This document shows positions 38,599 through 45,420 of a stretch of DNA of 64,000 bases, piece by piece. The notes under the pieces are model-generated. The model searched no databases. It was not told the origin of the DNA and saw only the letters and a program-made list of their open reading frames with translations. The stretch spans positions 64,001 to 128,000 of the forward strand of contig JAYKHS010000007.1 in assembly GCA_035285865.1 (NCBI GenBank). Direction: 5' to 3'. The stretch comes from Candidatus Sericytochromatia bacterium (lineage in GTDB: Bacteria > Cyanobacteriota > Sericytochromatia > S15B-MN24 > VGJW01). Position 1 is the first letter of the stretch; the number at the start of each line of letters is the position of its first letter. Made by a program: the position numbers and the translations under genes.

Positions 38599-40683
38599 TC
38601 AGGGATAGCCCTCGGGCACCAACCGCGCCAGATGCCCGCCCACCTGCTCGAGGCGCGCCGAGGCCTCTTCGGCCGAAAGCCCCAGCAACCCCATCGCGGC
38701 CGCCAGGCGGACCTTACCCCCGGCCGCATCCAGCAGGCGTTCCGCTTCGGGCATGCCCTTCATCACGATCTCGTCGATGATGCGGATGGCACGGTCGCGC
38801 AATTTGCGGTTCGAGACGTTCACATCGACCATCAGGTTGCCCCATGTCTTGCCCGTGAGCACCATGATGCCGGTGGATAGGGTCCCCAACACGACCTTGG
38901 TCGCCGTGCCGGCCTTCAGGCGGGTGCTGCCCGTCAGCAATTCGGGGCCCGTGACGATCTCGATCAGGTGGTCGACCGGGGGCTTGCCCTCCGGCCATCG
39001 GCCCTCCTGCGGCACGCACGTGACGAGCGCCGTCAGCGCTCCTTGGGCACGGGCGTGGGCGAGACCGGCACGGACATAGGCAGCCCCCCCTGAAGCCGAC
39101 AGGCCGACCACGATGTCGTCCGGCCCGACGCCTGCTCCCTGCAGATCGGCCACGCCAAGTTCCCCACGGTCCTCGGCCCCTTCGACGGCACGCGTGAGCG
39201 CCGACGGACCACCGGCCATGAAGCCGAGGACGCGCTCGGGAGCCGTCGAGAACGTCGGCGGACATTCCGCCGCATCCAGCACGCCCAGTCGTCCCGAGGT
39301 ACCGGCCCCGAGGTAGATCAGCCGGCCCCCGCGCCCGAACCGCTCGGCCGCATCGGCCAGCAGGCTCGCCAAAGGCGCCCGGGCACTGCGGACGGCAGCC
39401 GTGACGCTGTCTTCCTCGGCCGCGAAGTGCTCGACGATGTCCCCGGCGGAGGCTCTGTCGAGGTAAAGCGTGCCCGGATGACGGCGCTCGGTCGGCGGCA
39501 GGTGGGGATCCAGCCTCACCCACGGCATCTCGACCAGCAAGCGCTGATAGTTGGCGCCCGGGGCAATCGTCCCGAGGATGGTGGCGCGACGGGCGCCCGT
39601 AGCCTCCGGAGCATGGTTGAGGCGACCGAGGACGGCTTCGTAGGCAAACAACGCAAAGGCCACAGCTTCGCGGGCCGCCGCCTCGGGCAACTTCTCGAGC
39701 ACGAGGCCATGCTCGGCGATGAGGGCCTTCAGGCGACGCATCAGCGTCCTGTTGCGCACGCCACCGCCGGCAACCCTGACCCGCGAGGGCCGGAACGACC
39801 GATTCGGGGGCTGCTCCATCCACTGCACCAGCCCCCGGACGACCGTCCGGGCCGTCAGTTCGGTCGCCGTGGCCAGCACGTCCTCGACCGACAGCTCCAG
39901 TTGCATGGCCCGCTCCAGAAGACGCGCGACATAGGGCTGGCCAAACGCTTCGCGTCCCGTCGACTTGGGTGGAAGCTGCCCGAAGTAGGGGTTGTCCAGC
40001 AGCGCCCCGAGCAACACCGGATGCACCTGGCCACGGGCCGCCACCGCTCCGTCCCTGTCGCAAGGCAGGTTCAGCAGTTCCTGAGCCAGGCCGTCGAGGA
40101 CCATGTTGGCCGGACCGGTATCGAAGCCCGCGGCCGGCCCCTGCCGCGGAAGCAGCGTGAGGTTCGCGATGCCGCCCAGATTGAGCAGCACCTCGTCGGC
40201 CTCTTCCGAGCCGTACAGGATCTGGTCCGAGTGGGGGACCAGCGGTGCCCCCTGACCGCCCAGCGCCAGATCGGCCACGCGAAAGTCCCCGACGGTCGTC
40301 AGCCCGGTCAAGGCCGCGATTCGCGATGGCGATCCGAGCTGCACCGAGGCCACGCCCGGCAGATGCAGCACGGTCTGGCCGTGGCTGCCCACGAGCTGGA
40401 TCGTCTCATCGGGCGTCTTGCGCCACGGCAAGGGCACATCCGCGACGGCGGTGGCAAAGGCATCGGCCACCTCCACCTCGAGGCGCGCGACCTCCTCGAG
40501 GGGCGTACCGGGGCCCACTGCCCGGATGCGCGCGCCCAGTCCCTCCGGGTAGCGGACGGTCATGTGACCTTCGACGCGATGCCGGATGCGTCCCCCCGCC
40601 GTCCAGAAGACCACCTGCGCCACGTCGATCCCGTCGGCCGACGTGCCGGACATCAACCCGAGGACCCGCATCCTGTAAGCCAT
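38599..40683 (-). CDS. anmK-murQ: Fused anhydro-MurNAc kinase / MurNAc-6-P etherase
   Basis: GLMSGTSADGID, GGQGAPLVP, FDTGPAN; then GAGTSGRLGVLDAAECPPTF, GSTRLKAGTATK, GNLMVDV. Confidence 0.92.
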   Translation of the reverse strand: MAYRMRVLGLMSGTSADGIDVAQVVFWTAGGRIRHRVEGHMTVRYPEGLGARIRAVGPGTPLEEVARLEVEVADAFATAVADVPLPWRKTPDETIQLVGSHGQTVLHLPGVASVQLGSPSRIAALTGLTTVGDFRVADLALGGQGAPLVPHSDQILYGSEEADEVLLNLGGIANLTLLPRQGPAAGFDTGPANMVLDGLAQELLNLPCDRDGAVAARGQVHPVLLGALLDNPYFGQLPPKSTGREAFGQPYVARLLERAMQLELSVEDVLATATELTARTVVRGLVQWMEQPPNRSFRPSRVRVAGGGVRNRTLMRRLKALIAEHGLVLEKLPEAAAREAVAFALFAYEAVLGRLNHAPEATGARRATILGTIAPGANYQRLLVEMPWVRLDPHLPPTERRHPGTLYLDRASAGDIVEHFAAEEDSVTAAVRSARAPLASLLADAAERFGRGGRLIYLGAGTSGRLGVLDAAECPPTFSTAPERVLGFMAGGPSALTRAVEGAEDRGELGVADLQGAGVGPDDIVVGLSASGGAAYVRAGLAHARAQGALTALVTCVPQEGRWPEGKPPVDHLIEIVTGPELLTGSTRLKAGTATKVVLGTLSTGIMVLTGKTWGNLMVDVNVSNRKLRDRAIRIIDEIVMKGMPEAERLLDAAGGKVRLAAAMGLLGLSAEEASARLEQVGGHLARLVPEGYP

Positions 40684-40691
40684 GGCCCTAG

Positions 40692-40710
40692 CATAACCTT
40701 TTCTTATCCT
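40692..40710 (+). promoter_or_regulatory. 11-bp-spaced direct repeat between anmK-murQ and the TnpB-like gene
   Basis: cataacct (40692), cttatcct (40703). Confidence 0.35.
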
Positions 40711-40796
40711 CCGCCTGCCGATTTCATGGCAAACTGAAAATGGCTCGCACCTGACCGCATCATCGCCGCCCGTTGCCGGGCCAACCCCTTTTTGCG

Positions 40797-42605
40797 ATGA
40801 GCACGCTGCGTACCTTCGACCTCGAACTGAGGCCCCTCGATCGGGCCCAGCGCGAAGGCCTGCGCCGAATCCGCACTCAGGTCGAGTCCTGGTCGGCCCT
40901 CTGGAACGAAGCCCTCGCCCCGCTCGGCTGGGTGGATCTGGCCCAGTCCGTTCGGGATGAAGGCCTCGCCCGAGCCCGCACGATGCTCGACAGCGCCCGC
41001 GCGGGTGTCGAAGCCCTGCCCGAGCCTTTCCGCGGCACGCTCCTGGGCGCCCTCAGGACCCAGTACCGGGCGCTCACGGCCGGTGTCGCGGCCACCCGGG
41101 GCGAAGCCTGGACCTGGGCCGTATTCGCACCGGGCACGTGGACGCTCGTGCCTGCCGGGGATGACACCCTGCGCCTGCACCTGCCGCTGCTGGGCCGGGA
41201 TCTGCCTGTCCACGCCCGCCTGCCCCAGGGCCTGGACACCGAGACGTTCCGGCGCCAGACGGAGGGTGCCCGCTGGCTCGAGGCGCGCATCGGCCGCAGG
41301 CAGGGCCGCTGGGTGCTGCGCATCCGTTGCCGCCTCGCTGTCCGCACGCCCGTGGGCGTGGATCTCGGCATGCGCCACCGGGCGGTTGTGGCCGATGCCG
41401 ACGGCCGACTCCTGCTCGATGCAACCGGTCGCCGTGAACGCGGCAAGGTTGCCCGGATGGAGCGCGTGATGGCCTCGATGCAGCGCAAGGGCGCCCATCG
41501 GGCCGCACGACGCCTCGCCGCCCGGCGTGACCGCTATCAGGCCAACTGCGACCTCGCGGTGGCCGGGGCGGTGGTTCGCGCCGCCAGCAAGGTCGCAACG
41601 CCGGTCCTGCATCTCGAGAACGAGGCCACCTTCGCGACCTTGCCCGACGCCATGCGTCGCCGTCTGGTCCGCACCAGCCGGGCCATTCGCCGCAGCGCCA
41701 GCCGCGCCGGCGTGCCCGTCCGCTTGCTGGACGGTCGCCAGTCCACCCATCGCTGCGAAGCGTGCGGGACCCACGTCCCCGCTTCGTCTGCCCCCCTCGT
41801 GTCCTGCCGGTGCGGTTCGCGCCCGCGGGATCTGCAAGCGTCGCGCAACCTTGCGCGTCTCGCGTCGGCACGGGTTCGCCCGTCCGGCGAAGCTCCCCGA
41901 CCGGATTCGGGGAGACAGGCCGTCGGCACGGCTGCATCCCCGCCTCCTGCCCGTTACAAGGGCGTGCAGGAGCGCGCGGGAAGGGGCACGCAAGTCCCCC
42001 ATGCCTGGATGAACAACATCCCGTCCCTTGGTGCGCCCGCAAGGCGCCAGAAGGAGAAACCCCTCATGACGACCATCGTCAAGGATCTCGGCGAGACCAC
42101 CCAGAAGCTCGTCGTCCACTCGCTCGACAACCTCAAGACCTATGTCGAGAAGACCTCCCAGGAACTGGGCGGCGTCAACCTCGTTGGCGCGACCCGGAAC
42201 GTCCTCGACACCGCGATTGACGGCGCCAAGAACGTCGTCAAGGCGGCCGAGACCCTCTCGGACGATCCCTTCACGGCCATCAAGGTCGTGGCCGATCGCT
42301 CCGTCGAGGCCACCCGGGAAGTCCTCAACACCATCGCCGAGGAAGGCCGCAAGGCCGATCTCGTCGGGGTGTCGAGCCGCATCGCGATGGAAGGGCTCAA
42401 CACCCTTCGCTCCGAAGTGGATTACGGCCTCGAGACGGGCAAGGCGCTCGTGAACCGGCTTCAGGCCTCGGCCACGCCGACCCAGCCGGTCGTGACGCGT
42501 CCGCCTCAGGTGACCCGTGTCGAGATCGAACACGAGAAGCCCGCGAGGAGCAGCGCCAAGAGCACCGAGAAGGCCGCCGCGGCTGAAAAGCCCGCCAACG
42601 CCTGA
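40797..42605 (+). CDS. TnpB/Cas12f-like RNA-guided nuclease homolog, in frame with a downstream amphipathic protein
   Basis: N-terminal RTFDLELRP..Q...LWNEAL; GVDLG (D at 41361), LHLEN (E at 41616), CEAC...CRCG, RDLQASRNL (D at 41829); no stop until 42605. Confidence 0.8.
   Translation: MSTLRTFDLELRPLDRAQREGLRRIRTQVESWSALWNEALAPLGWVDLAQSVRDEGLARARTMLDSARAGVEALPEPFRGTLLGALRTQYRALTAGVAATRGEAWTWAVFAPGTWTLVPAGDDTLRLHLPLLGRDLPVHARLPQGLDTETFRRQTEGARWLEARIGRRQGRWVLRIRCRLAVRTPVGVDLGMRHRAVVADADGRLLLDATGRRERGKVARMERVMASMQRKGAHRAARRLAARRDRYQANCDLAVAGAVVRAASKVATPVLHLENEATFATLPDAMRRRLVRTSRAIRRSASRAGVPVRLLDGRQSTHRCEACGTHVPASSAPLVSCRCGSRPRDLQASRNLARLASARVRPSGEAPRPDSGRQAVGTAASPPPARYKGVQERAGRGTQVPHAWMNNIPSLGAPARRQKEKPLMTTIVKDLGETTQKLVVHSLDNLKTYVEKTSQELGGVNLVGATRNVLDTAIDGAKNVVKAAETLSDDPFTAIKVVADRSVEATREVLNTIAEEGRKADLVGVSSRIAMEGLNTLRSEVDYGLETGKALVNRLQASATPTQPVVTRPPQVTRVEIEHEKPARSSAKSTEKAAAAEKPANA
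41880..42050 (+). ncRNA. Candidate omegaRNA/guide scaffold or structured leader
   Basis: Six consecutive hairpins right after RuvC-III, where TnpB omegaRNAs normally lie. Confidence 0.4.
42066..42605 (+). CDS. Amphipathic helical (phasin-like) protein with own RBS
   Basis: aaggag at 42051, ATG at 42066, strongly biased codons, helical V/A/K/E/T pattern, K/A-rich tail. Confidence 0.7.
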   Translation: MTTIVKDLGETTQKLVVHSLDNLKTYVEKTSQELGGVNLVGATRNVLDTAIDGAKNVVKAAETLSDDPFTAIKVVADRSVEATREVLNTIAEEGRKADLVGVSSRIAMEGLNTLRSEVDYGLETGKALVNRLQASATPTQPVVTRPPQVTRVEIEHEKPARSSAKSTEKAAAAEKPANA

Positions 42606-42617
42606 TCGACGGCTGCA

Positions 42618-42660
42618 GCCGCCGGGTCCGGACCAGTCCGGGCCCGGCGGTCCGCCTTTT
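42618..42660. terminator. Terminator stem-loop
   Basis: ccgccgggtccgga ... tccgggcccggcgg then ccgcctttt. Confidence 0.65.
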
Positions 42661-42664
42661 GAGG

Positions 42665-43318
42665 TCAGGCGAGGTCGGCGAGCGCCACCCCTGCCGCTAC
42701 GAGAACCGCATCCGGATCGGCGGTGCCATCAACCCGAACAATGCGTGCGCCATGTTCACGTGCAAGCACGGCAAAGCCTTCGCGCACCCGCTCGTGGAAA
42801 GCCACCCCGGCACCCTCGAGCCGGTCCGGACCACGCGAGGCGGCGGCGCGGCGCAGACCTTCCGCAACAGGCACATCCAGCCAGAGGGTGCGATCCGGCA
42901 CGAGCCCGGCCGTTGCCCACGCATTGACCTGCTCGACCATGGCGCGGTCGAGCCCTCGACCGAAGGCCTGGTAAGCCACCAGCGAATCGACGTGGCGATC
43001 GCAGAGCACCCACGCACCCCGCGCCAGAGCCGGACGAACCACCTCGGCCAGATGCTGGGCACGGTCTGCGCCATACAGCAACAACTCAGCCAACGGGTCC
43101 ACATCGTGCCCCGGTGCCAGCAACAACTGGCGAATCGCACCCCCAAGACCCGTTCCTCCGGGCTCGCGGGTGACGACGACCTCCCTGCCCTCGCTGCCCA
43201 GCATCTCGGCAAGCGCGCGGATGAGCGTCGTCTTGCCCGCGCCCTCCCCGCCCTCGAAGGTCACGAAACGGCCCTTGCCGCTCCGAGGCAACGGGGATAG
43301 CCGGTCCACGCCGCTCAA
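42665..43318 (-). CDS. tmk: Thymidylate kinase
   Basis: FVTFEGGEGAGKTT, TREPGGT, DRAQH, LCDRHVDS..AYQ. Confidence 0.95.
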   Translation of the reverse strand: MSGVDRLSPLPRSGKGRFVTFEGGEGAGKTTLIRALAEMLGSEGREVVVTREPGGTGLGGAIRQLLLAPGHDVDPLAELLLYGADRAQHLAEVVRPALARGAWVLCDRHVDSLVAYQAFGRGLDRAMVEQVNAWATAGLVPDRTLWLDVPVAEGLRRAAASRGPDRLEGAGVAFHERVREGFAVLAREHGARIVRVDGTADPDAVLVAAGVALADLA

Positions 43319-45420
43319 GGGACCGCTCCCGGAAGACGTGGGCGCAAGGGCGCTTCAGACGGCGACCAGACGGGCATCGGCAGCACCTGGGGCGACGACG
43401 ACGCAGGCGACGACGCAGGCGACGACGCAGGCGACGACGCAGGCGACGACGCAGGCGACGGCGCTTCCGTGGCCCCTTCCGAAACACTGCTTTCCCGCGC
43501 GCCTGGCAACACGACGGGTTCCGCATCCTGGAAGGGATCCCAGGTGGGACCAGGTGACGGCAGACCCGGTGGGGGGCTGGCCTCGGGGAAGTTCCGCACG
43601 GGCAGGCCGGAGTGCCAGTCCTTCATGACCTTGCGCCAGATGCGGGCGGCCACCCTCCCCCCGAAGGCCCCGTCCTTCATCGGTGCGCGATCGTCGTTGC
43701 CGACCCACACGGCCAGGCTGACCTGCGGCGTGAATCCTGCGAACCAGGCATCGCGGAACGCACTGGTCGTCCCCGTCTTGCCCGCGGCCGGCCGACCGAT
43801 GCCCTGGCCCTTGGCCGTGCCGCGCTCGAGGACGCCGGAGAGCACCGAGACCAGGCGGGAAACGGCATGGGGCGGGGCTACCTCGGCCCGACGGGGTGCC
43901 GGACGCTCGTCGAGGCCGCCGCCCACGACCCGCACATGCAGCTGTGGCTGGACCCACTGGCCCTTGTTGGCGAACGCCGCGTAGGCGGCCGCGAGCTCGA
44001 TGGGGTTGGTGGCTCCCGAGCCCAGTGCAAGCGTCAGGTCCCGGGGATGCGGTCCCCGCATGCCGGCCGCCTTGAGGATGGCCTCGACCGGCTGGCGCCC
44101 TACCTCGGCATAGGTCCGGACCGCCACCGTGTTGACCGACTGCTCCAACGCGGCGCGAAGCGTCAGCGCACCATAGATGCGCCCGTCGTCGTTGCGCGGC
44201 TGGTACCAGCGCCCGTTGCCGGCCGGGTAGCGCGCCGCCGCGTCCACCACCACGTCCTCCGGCGTCCGGCCGGAGGCGAAGGCCGCAAGGTAGACGAACG
44301 GCTTCATGCAACTGCCCGGCTGCAGGTTCGCCATCGTCCGGTCGTAGTCCGTCGCCCCGACGCCACCCACAAGGGCCAGCACGTGGCCCGTGCCGGGTTC
44401 GACGGCCGCCATGGCCACCTGTCTGAAGCCCATCCGGGCACCATCCGTCCGCACGGCCTCCTCGGCCGCGGCCACCGCCAACTCCTGCAACCGGGCATCC
44501 AGCGTCGTCTGGACCACAAGCCCGCCCTCCTGCACGCGCGCCGGCCCGAGACGCGCCTCGAGCACGCTCTGCAGGCGACGGCGGAACCAGCCGTGGTCAT
44601 CCCGGGGCGAACGCTTGATGCCAAGGTGCCGACGCAGACCGTGTCCATCGATCTCTCCGGCACGCCAACGGGCCACCTGTCGGGTGCGTGCCTCGCGAAC
44701 CAAACGATCCGCCTTGAGATGACCGGCATTCACCATGCGGCCAAGCACGAAACGCTGGCGATCGATGAGTCGGTCGAGTCCATCGTCCGAGAAGGGATCG
44801 TATTGTGACGGTCCCTTGAGCATGGCGACAAGCACGGCCCCTTGGCCGGGATCCAGTCGGCTCGCCGGCTTGCCGAAGTAGACCTCCGCCGCTGCGGCAA
44901 CGCCGTACGCACCCCGCCCCCACCAGACCTCGTTCAAGTAGCGTTCCAGAATCTGGTCCTTGGTCATGCCACGCGTGAGCTGGACCGTGACCATGGCCTC
45001 GCGCAACTTGCGGTCCAGGGTCTTGCGTCGGTCCTGGATCAGCGTCTTGGCCAACTGTTGCGTCAGCGTCGACCCGCCCTCCCGAGCCTCTCCCGCGAGC
45101 AGGTTCTTGAACATCGCCCTTGCGAGGCCCTTGGGATCGAAACCGACATTGCCGTAGAAGCCGGGATCCTCGGTATCGATCAAGGCCTGCCGCAGGGACT
45201 CCGGCACGTCGGCCAGAGCCACGGCGTGCTGATGGCGTTCGCCCCGGATCTCCCCGAAGACCCGACCGGCCCGATCCCGAAGGATTGAGGGGGGACCGGG
45301 AAAAGGACGCAGCAAATCGGCCAAGGTATCGGCCGCGAGGCCCGGGCGGGCCAGGACCAGCATGGCCATCGTGGCGACCACCCCGGTCAGAGCCGAACGG
45401 CTCCGTCCGAAGGACCCCAC
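43315..45420 (-). CDS. Class A penicillin-binding protein (PBP1A family)
   Basis: GGSTLTQQLAK, RKLRE, YLNEV; QPGSCMK, SVN and KTGTT motifs. Confidence 0.92.
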   Translation of the reverse strand: MGSFGRSRSALTGVVATMAMLVLARPGLAADTLADLLRPFPGPPSILRDRAGRVFGEIRGERHQHAVALADVPESLRQALIDTEDPGFYGNVGFDPKGLARAMFKNLLAGEAREGGSTLTQQLAKTLIQDRRKTLDRKLREAMVTVQLTRGMTKDQILERYLNEVWWGRGAYGVAAAAEVYFGKPASRLDPGQGAVLVAMLKGPSQYDPFSDDGLDRLIDRQRFVLGRMVNAGHLKADRLVREARTRQVARWRAGEIDGHGLRRHLGIKRSPRDDHGWFRRRLQSVLEARLGPARVQEGGLVVQTTLDARLQELAVAAAEEAVRTDGARMGFRQVAMAAVEPGTGHVLALVGGVGATDYDRTMANLQPGSCMKPFVYLAAFASGRTPEDVVVDAAARYPAGNGRWYQPRNDDGRIYGALTLRAALEQSVNTVAVRTYAEVGRQPVEAILKAAGMRGPHPRDLTLALGSGATNPIELAAAYAAFANKGQWVQPQLHVRVVGGGLDERPAPRRAEVAPPHAVSRLVSVLSGVLERGTAKGQGIGRPAAGKTGTTSAFRDAWFAGFTPQVSLAVWVGNDDRAPMKDGAFGGRVAARIWRKVMKDWHSGLPVRNFPEASPPPGLPSPGPTWDPFQDAEPVVLPGARESSVSEGATEAPSPASSPASSPASSPASSPASSSPQVLPMPVWSPSEAPLRPRLPGAVP
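43397..43456. repeat. Five perfect 12-bp tandem repeats (gacgacgcaggc) encoding PASS in the PBP tail
   Basis: Directly visible. Confidence 0.95.

Follow-up and report, generated by a model that had tools for sequence, protein, structure and literature searches.

The stretch of DNA analyzed here (the window) comprises 64,000 nt of a Candidatus Sericytochromatia genome (assembly GCA_035285865.1, contig JAYKHS010000007.1, positions 64,001 to 128,000), and the element under study is one long open reading frame (ORF) on its plus strand in which a TnpB-like sequence is joined, without an intervening stop codon, to the gene of a small helical protein. All position numbers refer to the window. The frame starts at TTG 40773 or ATG 40797 (610 or 602 codons, respectively) and ends with a TGA stop at 42605, and the table-11 ORF listing and its translation bore out the claim of an initial annotation, made from the letters alone, that the TnpB-like part reads in frame into the downstream gene. 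Three parts can be distinguished: a part with the TnpB/Cas12f fold, ~70 linker codons that coincide with a structured RNA, and a four-helix protein of 179 aa (Table 1). The last of these begins at M424 and, as had been proposed, has a Shine-Dalgarno (SD) sequence of its own, AAGGAG, which ends 9 nt 5' of the ATG. The flanking genes encode an AnmK-SIS fusion upstream (divergent) and Tmk and a class A penicillin-binding protein (PBP) downstream (convergent), and identification of these neighbors confirmed the reported placement between anmK-murQ and tmk.

Considering that the G+C content of the window is 68% and that a 609-aa antisense frame (40704-42533, minus strand) mirrors the whole gene, an open frame by itself proves nothing here; the antisense frame is taken as a by-product of base composition and of codon bias on the sense strand. 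We therefore rely on comparison with relatives. In what follows, f1 to f7 denote families and g1, g6, g8, and g10 genera among 41 genomes of the class (g1 is the genus of the window), and the prefixes G, L, P, and X denote genomes, loci, proteins, and RNA runs, with G000 being the window's own genome. Of the 41 genomes, 17 gave a strong match (E <= 1e-17) and had both parts on the same contig, i.e., G000, six of the seven other members of f1, and all ten members of f3. Fifteen of these genomes have the strong match alone, while G019 and G021 also have weak TnpB-type matches elsewhere; matches in other families were to multi-copy frames of ~200-440 aa at E 1e-7 or weaker. The distance from the RuvC-III motif to the helical Met differs among the loci (67, 70, 71, 75, 77, or 79 codons), and at least five length changes have occurred, every one of which kept the frame, so that the parts are in frame in all 17 loci. 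No stop codon occurs in the fusion frame of the 17 linkers, whereas frames +1 and +2 contain 19 and 18, respectively, and shuffled linkers from seven lineages were open in only 9-27% of trials each. A degraded copy in f2 (L034/L069 of G008) behaves likewise: its 337-aa frame, identical to protein P0161 over the 196 residues compared (of 337), leads from a TnpB remnant of ~170 aa that lacks GVDLG, the zinc finger, and RuvC-III, through the RNA core, into the helical part. Hence, both parts lie in one frame in 18 of the 18 loci that have both, and we conclude that the fusion frame is under selection and is not a chance read-through. Since no in-frame stop precedes 42603, every complete TnpB-like protein would include the helical domain, and no complete form of the TnpB-like protein other than the 602-aa fusion is predicted. 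The annotation's suggestion of two products, this fusion and the free 179-aa protein, is plausible given that the SD and ATG of the helical gene are invariant and that RNA contigs span the leader and the helical gene.

The N-terminal part carries GVDLG at residues 187-191 (D189), LHLEN at 271-275 (E274), and RDLQASRNL at 344-352 (D345), with a C4 zinc finger between RuvC-II and RuvC-III (CEAC at 320-323 and CRC at 337-339, i.e., C320, C323, C337, and C339); all of these motifs lie where they had originally been placed. None of the curated TnpB-family thresholds was reached by this part: NCBIfam guided_TnpB gave a significant, sub-threshold match (E 2e-9, 37 bits; cut-off, 100), Pfam Cas12f1-like_TNB scored 23.9 against 26.3, and OrfB_IS605 scored 18 against 30.5. 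An AlphaFold2 model (15 orthologues) had block-wise predicted local distance difference test (pLDDT) values of mostly 65-94 over residues 1-310, below 40 at 357-424, and 50-68 over four long C-terminal helices. Foldseek returned 46 PDB matches at E <= 0.001, headed by Cas12f and TnpB RNA-DNA complexes (ISFba1 TnpB and ISDra2 TnpB); top matches such as 8j3r, 9nzq, and 8dzj had E values of about 1e-9 and sequence identities of 14-16%, and template modeling (TM) scores were low because the model also includes the linker and the helical part. Profile and structure searches thus agree with the original assignment and identify the part as a divergent member of the family with a Cas12f/TnpB fold. When 1.84 billion representative sequences were searched by profile, 8257 proteins matched at E <= 0.001; among the 150 matches listed of these 8257, five span both parts (P0007, P0008, P0004, P0009, and P0010), one does so partially (P0011), four are stand-alone helical proteins, and the remainder are TnpB-only proteins, mostly of 200-470 aa.

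The catalytic D-E-D triad and the four Cys are invariant across 10 standalone TnpBs aligned with the TnpB part, and 14 of 15 aligned orthologues retain D189, E274, D345, and all four Cys; a near-invariant HSW..QL block that standalone TnpBs have between RuvC-II and the zinc finger is absent from the clade studied here. The triad is missing only in G002 and in the f2 remnant. The G002 locus (L005), from a congener within g1, reads GVALG and LQLAD and has neither zinc-finger Cys nor the RuvC-III Asp, yet its frame of 590 codons has been preserved, together with the RNA and the helical part. In 12 orthologue pairs, g1 included, the ratio of nonsynonymous to synonymous divergence (omega) of the TnpB parts was 0.08-0.43 at synonymous divergences (dS) of 0.03-2.2, which indicates purifying selection; omega of the helical part was 0.06-0.35 in 12 pairs. 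The G+C content at third codon positions (GC3) is 0.84 for the gene, like that of adjoining genes. Among pairs of g1 genomes, dS of the TnpB part (0.47-1.5) was 3-6 times that of the helical part (0.11-0.29; helical GC3 0.88), a gap that may reflect either codon bias of an abundantly expressed gene or separate histories of the two parts. Taken together, the omega values and the retention of catalytic and zinc-binding residues in 14 of 15 orthologues fit a domestication in which, unlike in TldR, the triad is retained, as the initial annotation had held.

Domestication is also supported by the distribution of the gene. There is one copy and no further guided_TnpB match in G000 (2.82 Mb in 32 contigs), no match to the Y1 transposase family PF01797 in this 82.67% complete genome, and no CRISPR-like array between 30000 and 52000 of the window, where the only repeats were two short tandem repeats, both within the PBP gene; the claimed lack of tnpA and of an array was therefore correct. 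The annotation had named three observations that would speak against it, i.e., relatives without the gene at this site, multiple copies with insertion sequence (IS) ends, and stop codons in the linkers of orthologues. We found instead 17 single-copy orthologues in two families, no extra copies, IS ends, or TnpA in the genome, and open linkers throughout. The synteny that it proposed to check is conserved as well, with anmK divergent and upstream in 17 of 17 loci and tmk visible downstream in five (flanks of 1.5 kb limit the view). In a quick tree, the 17 TnpB parts group together as a single clade, apart from 52 standalone relatives (Shimodaira-Hasegawa-like approximate likelihood ratio test, 99), the branching tracks the genera, and the stem branch of g1 has a length of 1.59.

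The linker is constrained as nucleic acid and not as peptide. Its dS was below that of the RuvC region in 12 of 12 pairs (e.g., 0.086 vs 0.686) and its omega was 0.55-2.4 in eight of the 11 computable pairs; the close pairs L007/L012, L010/L011, and L013/L016 had values of 0.19, 0.45, and 0.17, respectively. The DNA alignment contains invariant blocks, namely CAGGCCGTCGGCACGGCTG (in which two loop positions vary), AAGG, AAG, CATG, CCTT, the SD GGAG, and the ATG, and within the core, third-codon positions are kept while a second position changes, replacing V with D. RNAalifold predicted 43 pairs, 26 of them with compensatory change. We tested a structure of 39 pairs, consisting of five nested helices and a long-range CAAGGG:CCCTTG pairing, against controls in which the 3' partners were slid by 1-3 columns and against shuffles. 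Results showed 91.2% of 649 cells to be paired, versus 33-52% when slid, with two-sided changes at 23 of the 39 pairs and a covariation score of 0.406, versus at most 0.157 when slid and 0.144 when shuffled (none of 500 shuffles reached the observed score); a single double change, CAAGGA:TCCTTG in L008, affects the long-range pairing. A covariance model of this RNA (R1) scored 123 bits at the window's locus and 56 bits at the f2 locus, and gave no match beside the helical gene in f4 loci, where that gene stands alone. Since the RNA occurs in f1, f2, and f3 and not in f4, it travels with the TnpB part, and since f2 keeps the RNA core after decay of the nuclease, the RNA outlives the nuclease. 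The distance from CCCTTG to the helical ATG was 32-47 nt among 14 loci, with GGAG and ATG invariant. An Rfam scan of 40400-42900 gave no relevant family (a single match to a lncRNA model, E 3.3). One further R1 match, in f4 (L062:2763-2901, plus strand, of G010; 22 bits, E 1.4e-5), has CAAGG and CCCUUG blocks and lies opposite riboflavin genes, not adjoining the helical gene; we regard it as probably a chance match.

We take the structured RNA to be the 5' leader of the mRNA for the helical protein. Near-identical contigs from RNA libraries were found in four metatranscriptome runs of four studies: X11 gave one contig from 41869 to 42572, X10 one contig from 41887 to 42577 between adapters, X15 pieces from 41871 with an adapter directly before them, and X18 sequence that reaches 42608. 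The contig starts (41869, 41871, and 41887; three studies) fall at the first hairpin of the RNA, from which the contigs run into the helical gene. No sigma-70-like promoter was found in 40600-42720 of the window. In f3 orthologues, a TGCTATAAT-type extended -10 box lies 40-130 nt upstream of the TnpB start, and in several of them GGAG precedes the start codon; the four g1 loci lack both. Downstream, the hairpin at 42618-42651 has a folding energy of -41.2 kcal/mol (z -4.18; 0 of 200 shuffles as good), and it corresponds to the shared terminator that had been claimed, although a consensus scan, for which a run of four T is too short, does not list it. In L011, L013, and L014, the stop codon of the helical gene is followed by an intrinsic terminator, and the junction of the two parts has none. 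The locus thus resembles a single transcription unit that is read from a promoter 5' of the TnpB part and terminated only beyond the helical gene. The contigs and this layout together would fit an operon in which the co-transcript is cleaved where the scaffold begins.

Several other features were seen upstream of the TnpB start. Loci of f3, including L010, L011, L013, and L016, have a conserved TGCTATAAT/CGCTATAAT extended -10 box, which in g10 is flanked by an inverted repeat, GGTTAAG(G)...(C)CTTAACC, operator-like in appearance. Loci of f1 have in its place a common upstream sequence, TCTTAACGTCAGCT, or TTTTCTTATCC in g1.

Table 1. Features of the TnpB-like/helical-protein locus (positions in the 64-kb window)
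Feature	Position	Strand	Basis or remark
Intergenic region from the divergent anmK-SIS gene to the TnpB-like start	40684..40796	+	no SD-like GGAG before ATG 40797 in g1
TnpB-like coding part (WED/REC, RuvC-I/II, zinc finger, RuvC-III)	40797..41858	+	motifs, family matches, AlphaFold2 and Foldseek, omega in 12 pairs
Codon of D189	41361-41363	+	sequence
Codon of E274	41616-41618	+	sequence
Codon of D345	41829-41831	+	sequence
CEAC of zinc finger	41754-41765	+	zinc-finger coding positions
CRC of zinc finger	41805-41813	+	zinc-finger coding positions
Structured RNA, omega-RNA-like scaffold, within linker codons 355-412	41859..42033	+	R1, 123 bits; covariation
First hairpin, CGGG-UUCG-CCCG	41871-41882	+	start of RNA contigs
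Hairpin P2, CUCCCCG...CGGGGAG	41893..41914	+	8 pairs unbroken in 17 sequences, each with two-sided changes
Near-invariant core CAGGCCGTCGGCACGGCTG, hairpin P3, loop UCGGCA	41916..41934	+	5 stem pairs identical in 17/17; two loop positions vary
CAAGGG, 5' strand of long-range pairing	41957..41962	+	partner CCCTTG 42025-42030; 96% of cells paired
CCCTTG, 3' strand of long-range pairing; likely 3' end region of scaffold	42025..42030	+	pairing with 41957-41962
Variable segment at guide position	42031..42065	+	small hairpin 42033-42047; SD AAGGAG 42051-42056
Helical-protein gene, 179 aa, TRVEIE motif in disordered tail	42066..42605	+	in frame with TnpB part; omega 0.06-0.35
Terminator-like 15-bp G+C hairpin after shared stop	42618..42651	+	followed by CCGCCUUUUGAGG
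Extent of metatranscriptome contigs (leader and helical gene)	41869..42608	+	4 runs, 4 studies

As to the neighboring genes, AnmK and the SIS (MurQ-like) part form a single 694-aa frame (38599-40683, minus strand), of which the AnmK part is conserved beside the locus in 17 of 17 relatives. The class A PBP gene contains a 12-nt tandem repeat (43396-43464; 5.8 copies, 98% matches) that gives the protein a repetitive Ser/Pro/Ala tract in its C-terminal tail.

The structured RNA is ~175 nt long and starts directly after RuvC-III, a point at which the ORF of 10 standalone relatives, or its tail, comes to an end. In the nearest mobile cyanobacterial TnpB copies (G227, G245, and G096), the ORF reads 47-68 aa past the RuvC-III Asp across the RNA region and stops about 28-43 nt before the right end, ...GAGTGTCAA, beyond which the copies diverge; the mobile loci in G227 and G245 are L042, L044, and L070-L072, and L071 has a frame-shifted tail. 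Five mobile copies share a hairpin with a covarying stem, GGGYUG-CUUGGCA-CARCCC, 109-110 nt after the codon of the RuvC-III Asp. The P3 hairpin of the locus studied here, GGCCG-UCGGCA-CGGCU, lies at +94 nt from the Asp codon and has UUGGCA in two lineages, so that a hairpin with a YYGGCAC loop is common to this clade (+94) and to the mobile copies (+109). Moreover, genus g6 carries CCCTTGGTGTCAA, in which GTGTCAA comes after CCCTTG, a succession that resembles the right end, ...GAGTGTCAA, of mobile relatives. Descent of the structured RNA from an omega-RNA is likely on these grounds. The target-adjacent motif of the mobile relatives was not readable from three copies.

RNA guidance is suggested by the structured RNA, and we searched host genomes for a guide target, treating the segment after CCCTTG, which varies between genera and contains the SD, as the guide. 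Comparison of the 13-mers of 41800-42120 with G000 gave runs of at most 16 nt, which is chance level, and when the CCCTTG-to-ATG segment was compared with each of 14 loci, nothing longer than 9-mers turned up except for a single 12-mer. Patterns of 20 nt with up to three mismatches from G009 and G011 (g6; 100% and 96% complete) matched only themselves, and those in G013, G023, and G026 gave one extra three-mismatch match (G013), at the level of the reversed-pattern control. No guide target was thus found in the genomes searched, phage or plasmid targets and short seeds lying outside the reach of this search.

The helical protein consists of four helices, amphipathic as had been described, and a disordered tail with a conserved TRVEIE motif, and its mean hydrophobic moment was 0.39-0.54, versus 0.19-0.23 when shuffled. 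The further suggestion that it is phasin-like was not supported. There was no Pfam or NCBIfam family and no phasin family at E <= 1, a PDB profile search gave E 0.19 or worse, and an AlphaFold2 model of the protein alone (pLDDT 47) was too low for a fold search; an atlas search gave unnamed clusters and a Phasin_2 lead at rank 20 (score 0.89), which is the one sign in favor. Nor does PhaC_N track the gene: it occurs in 33 of 41 genomes, including 10/10 of f6 and 3/3 of f7, where the helical gene is lacking, and in 0/3 of g8, which has the fusion. Since G000 itself has a PhaC_N match (G000:C30:22240-22410, L074; 44.8 bits, above the cut-off, in a 374-aa frame), the organism may make polyhydroxyalkanoate. 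The helical part was found in 27 of 41 genomes, i.e., in all members of f1-f4 and in 0 of 14 from f5-f7. Forty homologues were collected, nine of them with a source name, labeled as hypothetical without an organism or with labels of metagenome-assembled genomes (MAGs) of this lineage; 39 of the 40 have no Pfam domain, and the family was found only in MAGs of this lineage. The f4 homologues (27-32% identity) stand alone elsewhere, after an RlmL-like gene in three of the four loci looked at, and their neighbors gave no functional hint.

It is highly probable, in our view, that the locus represents an immobilized TnpB accompanied by a conserved structured RNA, that read-through into the partner is under selection, and that the partner protein can also be started independently from within the frame. 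The following course of events would account for it. An IS200/IS605-type TnpB gene with its omega-RNA region would have been immobilized upstream of a lineage-specific helical-protein gene in the ancestor of at least two, and probably three, families of one order, which the sources of homologous proteins label as Candidatus Sericytochromatia. With the TnpB stop codon missing, full translation would run ~70 codons on into the helical protein, while the helical mRNA would be translated from its own invariant SD and AUG into the free 179-aa protein. The TnpB-like part may bind its cognate scaffold in the transcript that they share and probably processes it on the 5' side, much as TnpB is described to make omega-RNA from its own mRNA by 5' processing (PMC10278001). 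Such processing would release or control a stable mRNA with a structured leader, in which the guide-position segment holds the SD, and the fused helical domain would tie the regulator to its own product. As a whole, this explanation, an immobilized module whose RNA is the leader of its partner's mRNA and whose protein would be made only as a fusion, is the best that we can offer, and we give it a probability of roughly 0.45. Action in cis is favored because no second genomic match to the guide-position segment beyond chance level was found in the genomes searched and because the RNA core persists in f2 beside a decayed nuclease; it is nevertheless a tentative proposal, to which we assign somewhat less than even odds.

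Several points weigh against this explanation. In g1, where the TnpB part evolves fast and its branch, at 1.59, is long, this part lacks an SD and one congener no longer has the triad, so the module may be relaxing or decaying in the window's own genus. Long retention of the D-E-D triad would equally fit DNA cleavage. The genomes are MAGs and kin and the counts are not independent; since the loci are related, the figures of 18/18 and of stop codons overstate independence. The RNA contigs cannot show the true 5' end, strand, or level, so that they provide no ranking for the high expression that the annotation ascribed to the helical protein, and none lies on 40700-41868, which is not evidence that the TnpB part is silent. 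Lastly, R1 missed all 14 loci of standalone or mobile TnpB relatives with filters on or off (nothing below E 0.17), so that omega-RNA ancestry rests on position, size, and one hairpin.

An alternative that we consider unlikely, and yet the strongest of those weighed, is that the fusion acts in trans as an RNA-guided DNA binder or nuclease, either TldR-like or as a fixed-guide defense or regulatory TnpB, with the leader being trimmed to an omega-RNA whose 3' segment guides the protein to a DNA target elsewhere and with the helical domain as effector or tether. The TnpB/Cas12f fold, a triad and a zinc finger that 14 of 15 orthologues retain, and a structured RNA at the omega-RNA position with a variable 3' segment would all be expected of such a protein, and immobilized TnpBs linked to a neighboring gene provide a precedent (PMC10691335, PMC13622181). 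However, the host genomes searched contained only chance-level matches and no target, the guide-position segment contains the SD, and RNA contigs join the scaffold to the gene.

Somewhat less probable again is that the fusion is a by-product, i.e., that the host needs only the promoter and the leader RNA, and that the frame is open for ribosome-transcription coupling over the ~200-nt leader, avoiding polarity or out-of-frame clashes, while the TnpB-like protein has no function of its own. This would explain why the RNA core and frame persist in f2 after decay of the nuclease, why G002 kept the frame after losing the triad, and why the g1 copies do without an SD; the lack of a terminator between the parts and the strong -10 box upstream in f3 agree with it as well. 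However, openness alone would not conserve an omega of 0.08-0.43 over ~350 codons in 12 pairs including g1, the catalytic and zinc residues in 14 of 15 orthologues, and a TnpB fold modeled with high confidence. Chance read-through, a pseudogene, or a still-mobile IS element is very improbable: long spurious frames are indeed common at 68% G+C, as the 609-aa antisense frame illustrates, and family scores are below curated cut-offs, but the parts are in frame at 18 of 18 loci with 0 stops versus 19 and 18, and the gene is under purifying selection, single-copy, syntenic, and without TnpA.

Exapted TnpBs are how mobile RNA-guided nucleases become host functions, with Cas12 and TldR as examples. 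The TldR proteins are TnpB-like, nuclease-dead repressors with fliC-, csrA-, and oppF-associated clades (bioRxiv 10.1101/2023.11.30.569447; PMC13622181). Like TldR, the gene studied here is an immobilized, single-copy, vertically kept TnpB derivative with one conserved neighbor gene and an RNA encoded 3' of the TnpB part. Unlike TldR, it keeps D/E/D and the zinc finger in 14 of 15 orthologues, is fused in frame to its partner, and has its RNA in the partner's mRNA leader; no promoter target was found, and lineage and partner differ. Immobilized TnpBs with an apparently active RuvC are known from Altae-Tran et al. (2023, PMC10691335), and the present case resembles these in being a non-mobile clade that is fixed in a lineage with the catalytic site intact. 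The linked cases described there involve RHH/MazE, PrimPol, GATase, sigma, SpoIIE, flagellin, and DppD, and neither this partner nor a read-through fusion is among them; one supplement of the article is without Sericytochromatia, UBA8530, phasin, and AnmK, although its other supplementary tables could list this clade. Exapted and immobilized TnpBs, including the TldR and Altae-Tran et al. cases, are thus already known.

Mobile IS200/IS605 TnpB (Nety et al. 2023, PMC10278001) resembles this locus in that the 3' end of the RuvC-III coding region is where the RNA starts and in that the tail of the ORF reads over it. Unlike in the mobile elements, there are no ends, copies, or TnpA here, the stop codon is lost and the ORF continues into the flanking host gene, and R1 misses the mobile RNAs. 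The core fold of WED, REC, RuvC, and zinc finger is shared with Cas12f, from which the protein differs in having no CRISPR array at 30000-52000 and an identity of 14-16%. The partner, with ~170 aa and four amphipathic helices, is like phasins and amphipathic helical coat proteins but has no Phasin family match. We found no literature on TnpB in Sericytochromatia and, judged by titles and the beginnings of abstracts, none of relevance on immobilized cyanobacterial TnpB.

Against the literature searched, three things appear to be new: a non-mobile gene whose catalytic triad has survived divergence at the level of an order, a frame selected to cross an RNA-coding region into a host gene, and an RNA that serves as that host gene's mRNA leader. 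It is possible, though we hold it with more doubt than the cis-acting mechanism by itself, that the locus holds a natural TnpB whose omega-RNA scaffold lies in a host mRNA leader and whose protein is joined by selected read-through to that mRNA's product, either acting in cis on its own transcript, by binding it, processing its 5' end, and controlling the SD at the guide position, or tethering an active RNA-guided nuclease to a structural helical protein. If the cis or tethering reading is true, TnpB would have been exapted here in a way that differs from TldR, Cas12, and toxin-like TnpBs. The system is compact, with one promoter, one RNA, and two nested products, and it asks whether recognition of RNA by TnpB can be re-used for RNA processing or translational control; it also lets one ask what keeps an immobile nuclease active. 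Finally, it provides the first context for a family of helical proteins specific to the non-photosynthetic sister lineage of the cyanobacteria.

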